From Bdellovibrionales bacterium (GTDB lineage: Bacteria > Bdellovibrionota > Bdellovibrionia > Bdellovibrionales > UBA1609): a DNA stretch of 64,000 nucleotides. Made by a program: the position numbers. Shown here piece after piece: positions 1-3,000 of this stretch; the first letter of the stretch is position 1, and each line of letters opens with the position of its first letter. Location: positions 1-64,000 of the forward strand of contig DAHVQG010000002.1 of NCBI GenBank assembly GCA_027317865.1, read 5' to 3'.

Positions 1-3000
1 TTTGAGATACGGAGCCTCGGTAAACCGTCTTCGTTGATCGATACGACGTAGTCTTCTCCCACTTTGTAGACATAGACGTCAGGCGTGATAAACTGCGTGT
101 CGCTCGACATAAACGCGCGGCCGGGTTTCGGCTCCATCCCGAGGATGATTTTTGACATTTCAACAACTTCTTCGAGATCTTTATTTAAAGCCCTGGCAAT
201 CGCCGGGTAATTTTTCTTCTCAAGATCGGGCAAATGGTGTTCTATGATTTCGACAAGGTCATTTGTGTCTTCTTGTAAATTGCGCGCTTGAATCAAAAGA
301 CATTCTTTTAGGTCGCGAGCGCCCACCCCAGGAGGATCAAATTCTTGCAAAAACGGGAGCATCTCTGCAAGTTCCGACACCTCGACACCCTCTTCTTTAG
401 CGATTTCTTCGAGTGAGGCTTGCAAATAACCTTCGTCGTTGATGTAACTAATCAGAATAGAAATAGTAGATTCTTCTTCTTCGTTAAAGCCGAATAAACT
501 CATCTGCCATAACAAATAGTCGCTGAGCGTTTGCGTCGTGGAAATCACGTTCTCGTAATTCATGATTTCATCGCTAAACTCAGACGGCGTCGAACCCTGT
601 GCGGGAGGTTTGTACAGACTTTCAACGTAGTTTTCCCACTCGAATTCGTCTTGACGGCGGGGGTCGGTGTCGCCTTGCACCTGTGCTTCTGCGGCTCTTA
701 GATCTTCGGCTGTTTGACTTTTTGCCGCCGGGTCTTCTTCGCTTGTCTCCTGCACTTCTTCGAGAACAGGATTTTCGTTGAGCTCTTTGCGGACCTCTTC
801 TTCCATCTCGACGCGCGACAATTGTAGTAGCTTAATAGCTTGCTGCAATTGCGGAGTCATCCGCAACTGTTGCGATAGCTTCATCGACATTTTCAGGTTC
901 ATTGCCATATCTTAAATATTCCGCCCTACAACTTAAAATTTTCGCCTAAATAAAATTTTCGCGCAATTTGTGAATTGGCTATTTGCTCAGCCGTCCCCTG
1001 GACTTCGATCTTACCATCCCGGAGAATGTAAGAGTAGTCGCAGATTCCGAGTGTTTCGCGAACATTGTGATCCGTAATCAAAATGCCCAGACCTTCGGCT
1101 TTTAATTCACGGATAATGTTTTGAATATCCGCAACAGCGATCGGATCAATCCCGGCAAACGGTTCATCGAGAAGAAGAAATTTAGGCGAGCCCGTGAGCG
1201 CACGCGCAATTTCAACCCTTCGTCGTTCGCCCCCTGAGAGCGCGTAACCGTAACTTTCTCTGATCGCTTCGATGCCGAAATCACCGAGCAATTTCTGCAA
1301 TCGCTCTTCAAACGCCGACGGCGGCACTTGCGCGGCCTCAAGACCCACTTTCAAATTTTCATTTACGGTGAGCCGCCTGAACACGCTGGCCTCTTGCGGT
1401 AAGTAACTTAAGCCAACGCGCGCGCGCTGGTACATCGGCATTTTGCTGATATCTTGTCCGTTCAAATATATCTCGCCTTTATCGGGCGGCAGTATGCCCA
1501 CTACCATATAAAATGATGTTGTTTTGCCAGCCCCGTTCGGACCTAACAAACCGACAACTTGACCGCCTTCAATTTCAAACGAGACCGAATCCACGACCGC
1601 GCGTTGTTTGAATTTTTTTGAAATCCCTTTGATCGATAGCCTATTCAATTTTTCACTCCACGACGTTTTGCATTTTATGACTTTTCAAAGTTTTATTGCT
1701 CACGTGAACTCTGGCGTTTTTCACTTGAACCTTTTTACCGCCATCAAGAAACACAATTTGGTTCCCGCTGATTTCATCATTATCTTGAACAACCCGCGGT
1801 TGGCCATCGAAAACGAATTCATCTTTAGCTAAATTAATACGTAATCGCTCAGAAGTCGCCCATTTATCGACATCGTGAACTTTCACGCCTCCAGTCAGCT
1901 GCACAGAATCGGGAATGTCGGTTCCGTTTTTATAATGAAATAGTGCATCCGGCCCGGTGATTCGAATGCCATTTATGTCGATATTCACTTGACCGGAAAA
2001 TTTCACCTCATGCCCTTTGCCGAATAGTTTGGCCCTGTCAGCCCGCACAATCATGTCTTCGTTTTTTCGAATTTCTTTTTGCGCTCTGACATGATTTGAA
2101 ATTGTCACTGTCCCTTGTCTAAGGTTCGCCTTCATGGATTGCCCTTGAATGTACATATGCTTGCCGAAAGCATCGCGTGGACCGTCGACCACAACGTGCG
2201 TCGGAGAACTCAAAACGCGTTCTTTAGAATTATAGCGGACGGTATCGGTATGAAAGATATAACCGTTCGAAGACGTTGTGACGACACCACCGTTGACGAT
2301 CATGTTTTTGGTGGCCGTTACAATGGACCCGGTTTGCCCTTTAACTAAAAAAGTTAGGCCATTCTTTGCAAAAAAACTCGCCTTCACGTGCTGAAGCGCC
2401 AATTCACTTTCTGCCTTAAAACCGATGGCGCGCTTTGCCCAAAGCTCCCACTCTTTGCTTTCATTGTTCGTTTCGACAACATGCACGCCGGCCATCTGCT
2501 GCTGTACATCGCTTGATTTAATGTCGAGCCTGCTTTTGTGATGTTCCGCCACATGGCTGGACGGAGTTTTATCCGCAACGTCATTAGGCTCCATAAGGGC
2601 AATTTCCAAAACCAAGGCAAAAAAGAGCACGGCCAGAATGTATTGACTCACTTTTCGCATATTTAGAATTGTATCACATTGAGACGGAGTTTTTAAGTTT
2701 TCACGCCGAGTTCCCGATACGTAATCGTATGAGTCGATGGTTTATCTCTGAAAATGAAAACGTGCGCGGCCCATTTAGCTCCGACGAAGTGCGAGCCATG
2801 CTTACGGATGGTCAAATTTCGCAGTCGACGATGGTTTGGGGCAAACCTCAAACCTCTTGGGTCGATGTCAATAAATGGGTGTCGCTGCTGCCCCAACTCT
2901 CAAAGCTACAGGGCCCGATTGAAGATTCAGCTCAACAACAGCCGTGGCACTACGCCGTAAACGGCAATTCCGTGGGCCCACTGACTCGCGCAGAGCTCGT

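Follow-up and report, generated by a model that had tools for sequence, protein, structure and literature searches.

The window analysed here is the whole stretch of 64,000 nucleotides at the start of contig DAHVQG010000002.1 from a genome of the Bdellovibrionales (GCA_027317865.1). This genome was assembled from a metagenome into 42 contigs and is 99.2% complete. At the beginning of the window, lptCA, lptB and rpoN follow each other on the reverse strand, the stop codon of lptCA being separated from the start of lptB by only 4 nt (Table 1). The initial annotation had placed a single 335-aa ORF directly upstream of lptB, and this ORF is indeed present. A scan for promoters and terminators gave results at chance level only (3 versus 3.5 for promoters, and 5 versus 3.5 for terminators). 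The place before lptB-rpoN is shared with the lptC-lptA-lptB-rpoN locus of E. coli, as are the partners LptB, F, G, D and E. By contrast, the E. coli genes kdsD-kdsC are not found upstream of lptCA in this window; their place is taken by a divergently oriented gene (2669-3442, forward strand) that encodes two GYF_2 domains and a PilZ domain. Further along are a 105-aa ORF (3577-3894, forward strand), whose product has several cysteines, a signal-like start and no match in Pfam or NCBIfam, and a run of ExbD, ExbD, MotA/TolQ/ExbB, FHA-domain and TPR genes (3958-12062, reverse strand). The latter presumably resembles the clusters for gliding motility in Myxococcus and Bdellovibrio.

Table 1. Genes of the lptCA locus and segments of the encoded protein, with the evidence for each.
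Feature	Positions	Strand	Evidence
rpoN (sigma-54), truncated at the contig end	3..908	-	PF04963, PF00309
lptB, ATPase of the LPS export ABC transporter	926..1648	-	TIGR04406, 350.8 bits (cut-off 240)
lptCA, 335-aa LptC-LptA fusion gene	1653..2660	-	ORF, Pfam/NCBIfam domains, fold model
LptA beta-jellyroll, residues 199-322, complete through the last strands	1695..2066	-	PF03968 above cut-off; fold
LptC-to-LptA junction, short turn of two residues	2067..2072	-	model strands 184-198 and 201-213
LptC beta-jellyroll, residues 50-196	2073..2513	-	TIGR04409 and PF06835 above cut-off; fold
Flexible tether, residues 23-49	2514..2594	-	pLDDT below 50 at 28-32 and 35-44
N-terminal membrane anchor, residues 4-22	2595..2651	-	model helix 2-22; hydropathy

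The product of lptCA was matched by the NCBIfam family for LptC (TIGR04409) at residues 46-194, with 77 bits against a cut-off of 38, and by that for LptA (TIGR03002) at residues 198-316, with 36 bits and thus below the cut-off of 71.7; both pairs of residue coordinates are exactly those reported earlier. Two Pfam families were matched above their cut-offs, namely PF06835 at residues 42-194 (64 bits versus 21) and the LptA/LptD N-terminal family PF03968 at residues 205-303 (31.8 bits versus 20.4). An AlphaFold2 model based on 73 sequences (pLDDT 90.9) predicts an N-terminal helix, a disordered tether and then one run of beta-strands from residue 52 to residue 319. Residues 50-187 of the model match LptC (6mjp_C) with a Z-score of 16.5 and an rmsd of 2.3 over 131 aligned residues, while residues 197-322 match LptA (2r1a_C, chain residues 32-166) with a Z-score of 16.7 and an rmsd of 1.8 over 121 aligned residues; Foldseek concurs in both cases. 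A sequence search of the PDB with LptCA matched LptA alone, with an E-value of 0.75. Domains and predicted fold thus bear out the proposal that one chain combines an anchor with the jellyrolls of LptC and LptA. In the alignment, the first half ends at residue 180 of E. coli LptC and the second half starts at residue 33 of E. coli LptA, so the parts that were lost are the tail of LptC and the signal peptide of LptA. No signal-like segment was found between residues 150 and 260 in any of 199 homologues, and the span from 186 to 207 is exactly 22 residues long in 167 of them. In the modelled chain, the edge of LptA that is targeted by thanatin-type peptides would lie under the last strand of LptC.

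The predicted anchor helix, tether and jellyroll are shared with E. coli LptC (YrbK; PF06835, TIGR04409; 3my2, 6mit, 6mjp), and the second jellyroll and the head-to-tail order with E. coli LptA (YhbN; PF03968, TIGR03002; 2r19, 2r1a; LptH 4uu4). What differs from E. coli is that all of this is a single polypeptide that has dispensed with the LptC tail and the LptA signal peptide. A stand-alone LptC has about 190 amino acids and one jellyroll, as opposed to 335 amino acids and a second jellyroll in LptCA; compared to a stand-alone LptA, the second half falls below the equivalog cut-off and has no signal peptide of its own. The Kyte-Doolittle mean over 19 residues is 2.24 for the anchor versus 2.53 for that of E. 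coli LptC, and the span 25-54, which includes most of the tether, is mostly 24-31 residues long among the homologues. In the Bdellovibrionales copies, a Glu or Gln at position 19 lies inside the anchor helix (178 of 199 homologues) and a Pro at position 25 just after it (185 of 199; both at 2586-2606 of the window, reverse strand). At the corresponding position of its anchor helix, E. coli LptC lacks an acidic residue; E/Q19 might have a basic residue in LptF or LptG as its partner.

To describe how widespread the fusion is, we sampled 13 families of the order, with 151 genomes in total. The order profile matched 142 of these genomes, with one frame across the junction in 141. Four rows that had been flagged with a stop codon were fused once they were excised, and the genome G134 was recognized as fused by a wider profile, which brings the total for the order to 142 of 151 genomes fused and none split. 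Among the other nine, one locus is cut by a contig end, two genomes are about 70% complete, five are without lpxC and one has lpxC only; in this last genome, where neither lptB nor lptCA was found, a gap is probably responsible. As had been claimed, lptB lies directly downstream of the fusion, namely in all 106 loci that extend far enough to include it (of 110 inspected, 4 being cut short and some genomes being represented twice). The record titles of 79 out of 80 homologues name the Bdellovibrionales, its families, its class or its phylum.

The idea that the fusion is the rule across the order therefore holds, but its restriction to the Bdellovibrionales does not, since it spans the whole GTDB phylum. 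Of 201 genomes sampled across the phylum, the order profile matched 165, and lptB was found in 182. Nineteen genomes had lptB and no match to the profile; 17 of these carry a fused gene, and in the other 2 the locus is truncated at a contig end. Split lptC and lptA genes were sought among the profile-negative genomes and none were found. Outside the order, 54 loci from the phylum were excised, of which 50 were fused and 4 ran off a contig end, although 21 of the 54 had helped to build the half profiles and match these by construction; with Pfam alone, both families exceeded their cut-offs in 19 of the first 20 such loci. The LptCA fusion is thus present throughout the Bdellovibrionota wherever Lpt is retained. 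Since the sampled genomes are kin, these counts reflect inheritance rather than independent events. In a control phylum, that of a bin labelled Gammaproteobacteria, 1 of 120 genomes was fused, based on 20 LptC frames of at least 286 residues and not of LptD size that were excised and checked. The control-phylum fusion (L211:1165-2196, forward strand) lies directly before an lptB gene and has about 25% identity to the nearest copy from the Bdellovibrionota. One further fusion (L092) was located on a 3.5-kb contig of the bin labelled Gammaproteobacteria, a genome that also has its own separate lptC and lptA; we set gene transfer aside here, and take the contig to be misbinned.

To the possibility that the fused frame is an artefact of assembly or gene calling, or reflects a recent stop-codon loss in this genome only, we give practically no credence. 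It is true that the source is a metagenome assembly in 42 pieces, and that lptC and lptA overlap in E. coli, where a frameshift could merge them. However, the identical single frame recurs in 142 of the 151 order genomes, among them the complete genome of Bdellovibrio sp. HCB337, the junction bears no remnant of a signal peptide, and contigs from three other sequencing runs span it without any indel (these runs are from one study, possibly the source study, and a fourth run, X5, has no coverage of the junction). We regard the artefact as refuted on these grounds. The initial annotation had also pointed to the low TIGR03002 score of the second half as a possible weakness, and the score was confirmed. 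It leaves room for a reading in which LptCA is a lengthened LptC, produced by internal duplication or by acquisition of an LptD-type jellyroll, the true LptA having been lost or replaced by an unrecognised protein. The two halves are indeed mutually related, as are all Lpt jellyrolls (hhalign probability 92%), and while all 39 C-halves match TIGR03002, 9 of them also match TIGR04409; conversely, all 42 N-halves match TIGR04409 and 3 of them also TIGR03002. Moreover, one control genome has a 330-aa LptC with extra jellyroll sequence alongside a separate lptA (L200:1054-2043, forward strand). Against this, a profile of 39 C-halves aligned with E. coli LptA at 96.5% over 119 columns and with E. 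coli LptC at a mere 0.7%, the N-half profile giving a weak 54% with LptC versus 18% with LptA. LptA was likewise the top fold match of the C-half, at the rmsd of 1.8 given above. A tree of 50 rows separated one group, made up of the N-halves and E. coli LptC, from another that contains the C-halves, free LptA and the LptD N-domain, with a support of 95/86 for the split; both E. coli rows are long branches, and on the LptA/LptD side the separation of the C-halves from the LptD N-domain lineage is unsupported beyond LptD being a clade of its own. The C-half also occupies the place of lptA between lptC and lptB, and for 17 of the 19 control loci without a fusion, its profile retrieved the separate lptA downstream of lptC. 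The profile comparison, the fold and the tree all support the conclusion that the second half is LptA and not a second LptC, and the lengthened LptC appears very improbable to us. By all computational tests run, both halves of LptCA behave like their E. coli counterparts.

The source genome was also searched for other proteins of this type. PF03968 and PF06835 matched only the lptCA ORF and an 801-aa LptD frame, in agreement with the earlier statement that LptD holds the sole other LptA-type match, and a six-frame scan of the genome with family-specific half profiles for other jellyroll genes gave nothing further below an E-value of 0.09. In four of five near-complete genomes that were searched for a free LptA, PF03968 matched only the fusion and an LptD-sized frame, and in the fifth it had no match at all. 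A database search for short proteins with the C-half alignment returned 14 matches, 12 of which are fragments without a signal peptide, several of these beginning within the LptC half, and 2 of which are free LptAs of another type. Judged by sequence, the source genome appears to have no free lptA; a very divergent free jellyroll protein could escape such detection. The genes lptB, lptF, lptG, lptE and lptD were all found, together with lpxC for lipid A synthesis. This amounts to six polypeptides instead of the seven separate ones of the textbook Lpt system, LptC and LptA being one chain. In all 30 copies examined from the order, the N-domain of LptD is a single jellyroll with a length of 160-165 residues, and this constancy rules out compensation by a longer LptD.

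An artificial counterpart of LptCA has been described. According to the available passages of PMC12065857, a laboratory-made fusion of LptC and LptA associates with LptB2FG and, with ATP, passes LPS on to LptD in nanodiscs; its domain order is the same as that of LptCA, but it is an in vitro construct whereas LptCA is natural and phylum-wide. Proteins with both families also exist in other phyla. ESM Atlas clusters that combine PF06835 and PF03968 are commonest in Margulisiibacteriota (338 aa), Omnitrophota (294 aa), Pseudomonadota (395 and 639 aa), Acidobacteriota (714 aa) and Planctomycetota (657 aa). These chains share the domain architecture of LptCA, and several are much longer and multi-modular. 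Because the fusion recurs in other phyla and works when engineered, LptCA is plausible rather than startling. Both Pfam families were present in 73 of the 74 homologues listed, of which JGI names 4 'LptC/LptA'. NCBI annotates LptCA proteins plainly as LptC, which makes lptA look missing, and recognition of the fusion corrects this annotation. Natural LptA-LptD fusions are reportedly mentioned in one paper, of which the open-access search gave no trace. As for a published natural LptC-LptA fusion, the initial annotation had come across none in its searches, and none was found in open-licence PMC or bioRxiv full text; searches by term within the accessible text of PMC4986956, PMC8871954, PMC13721041, PMC13181209, PMC9972910 and bioRxiv 2025.09.09.675085 gave no mention of one either. 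The natural, phylum-wide LptCA is thus undescribed in the open-access papers searched, while the architecture itself is visible in databases.

Taken together, our preferred reading is that LptCA results from the in-frame joining of two neighbouring genes, lptC and lptA, is fixed in the Bdellovibrionota, and constitutes, with its one LptA, the whole periplasmic shuttle between LptB2FG and LptDE; we assign this a probability of roughly 0.8. By analogy with E. coli, LptCA would form the LPS bridge in the following way. The anchor helix would sit within LptB2FG, which would extract LPS, and with the edge of LptC stacked on LptF, the LPS would enter the LptC half. It would then be driven onward to the LptA half through a single uninterrupted groove, without a hand-off between proteins, and the LptA half would dock on LptD with its free C-terminal edge. 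Such a bridge would be pre-joined from LptF through C and A to D, with only the A-D contact being made and broken. Since a covalent link closes the C-A interface and free LptA appears to be absent, there would be one LptA per LptC in the bridge, and a concentration-dependent LptA oligomer as in E. coli would not form. Complex prediction lends weak support to the docking of LptCA on LptD: the periplasmic part of LptCA and the LptD N-domain scored 0.58 versus 0.01 for the best of 3 controls (no interface being given), and the runs agreed in at least 94% of contacts with a partner pLDDT of at least 75. The mark for a complex was reached by 116 of 157 solved pairs and by 2 of 215 mismatched pairs, yet scores that reach this mark and do not exceed 0.60 include just 18 solved pairs along with both mismatches, and LptCA-LptD, being a textbook pair, may pass by likeness.

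Longer forms of the gene were observed in several lineages. In two genomes of genus g139, the LptC half contains one extra 29-residue repeat (L228:1111-2205, forward strand) or two of them (L229:1054-2211, forward strand). These repeats have self-scores of 71 and 64 versus a shuffle maximum of 39, and the model folds them as additional beta-strands with a pLDDT of 51-64. The LptA half is enlarged by about 60-70 residues in family f15 and by about 130 residues in the genome G153 (loci L117, L118, L230-L233 and L235), and no clear sequence repeat was found in these insertions. L117 and L118 have no lptB next to the fusion, and the usual anchor helix was not seen in the alignment of the f15 N-termini. 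For f15 and G153, with their 60-130 extra residues in the LptA half, it is inexact to speak of 'one LptA' per chain. A search for still longer forms, which was a weak one, yielded one LptC plus LptA chain of 860 amino acids that is of another type.

This variation within the gene fits a bridge length that is encoded by the gene, without proving it. Lineages in need of another bridge length would then alter the gene and not the number of subunits. We tentatively extend this to the notion that LptCA may act as a molecular ruler in a six-chain LPS export system throughout the phylum, its cultured predators included, in which the gene sets the length of the bridge and jellyroll rungs take the place of stacked LptA, though we judge the odds to be against it. 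If it were true, the width of the periplasm should track chain length across the phylum, and a shorter or longer lptCA should change the spacing of the membranes or block export. Alternatively, the length of the bridge might still be variable, either because anchored LptCA chains stack head to tail or because clipped chains polymerise like LptA. For stacking, the LptA edge of one chain could meet the LptC edge of the next, as the edges in this family are interchangeable according to the available part of PMC5575297; a direct LptC-LptD contact is modelled in the accessible text of PMC10863985, and the predicted disordered tether of about 27 residues might span several nanometres. Clipping would be compatible with E. 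coli LptC remaining functional without its helix, as stated in passages of PMC4986956. Nevertheless, the conserved proline after the helix and the lack of a conserved Ala-X-Ala would argue against release by signal peptidase, the N-terminus of LptCA has no cysteine for a lipid anchor, and lineages lengthen the gene itself, as would be expected if stacking were unavailable. A bridge of variable length is the main competitor of the preferred reading, but unlikely in our view.

The single LptA of the preferred reading, in which LptCA is the whole shuttle, bears on a long-standing question. In the passages available from reviews and studies of 2018-2024, the number of LptA units in the bridge is called unknown or debated (PMC6164715, PMC7347655, PMC10094684, PMC10863985). 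The accessible part of PMC5575297 states that monomeric LptA partly supports growth of E. coli, and estimates a one-LptA bridge at about 16 nm. A gene that is fixed in a phylum and has one LptA welded to LptC would be natural evidence that one LptA suffices, and assembly of the bridge could be controlled at the LptA-LptD contact alone. Since Bdellovibrio has harmless members in culture, the question of the LptA number is testable there, with the natural length variants as a guide, and LptCA, being joined from the outset, is a target for solving the structure of the entire bridge.

Lastly, we observed 19 genomes that have neither lpxC nor a match to LptCA, all of which keep Omp85. They comprise four genomes of family f7 in the order (G019, G029, G038 and G045), one of family f1 (G149) and every one of the 14 genomes sampled from family f22. 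Their completeness ranges from 76 to 98%, and three are on a single contig; the absence of LptCA was judged from the order profile and, for 7 of them, also from the wider profile. LptB is missing in 14 of 14 f22 genomes as well as in G019, G038 and G149, and LptD is missing in the four f7 genomes. The pattern suggests that LPS was lost on at least three separate occasions, in bacteria whose outer membrane was retained.
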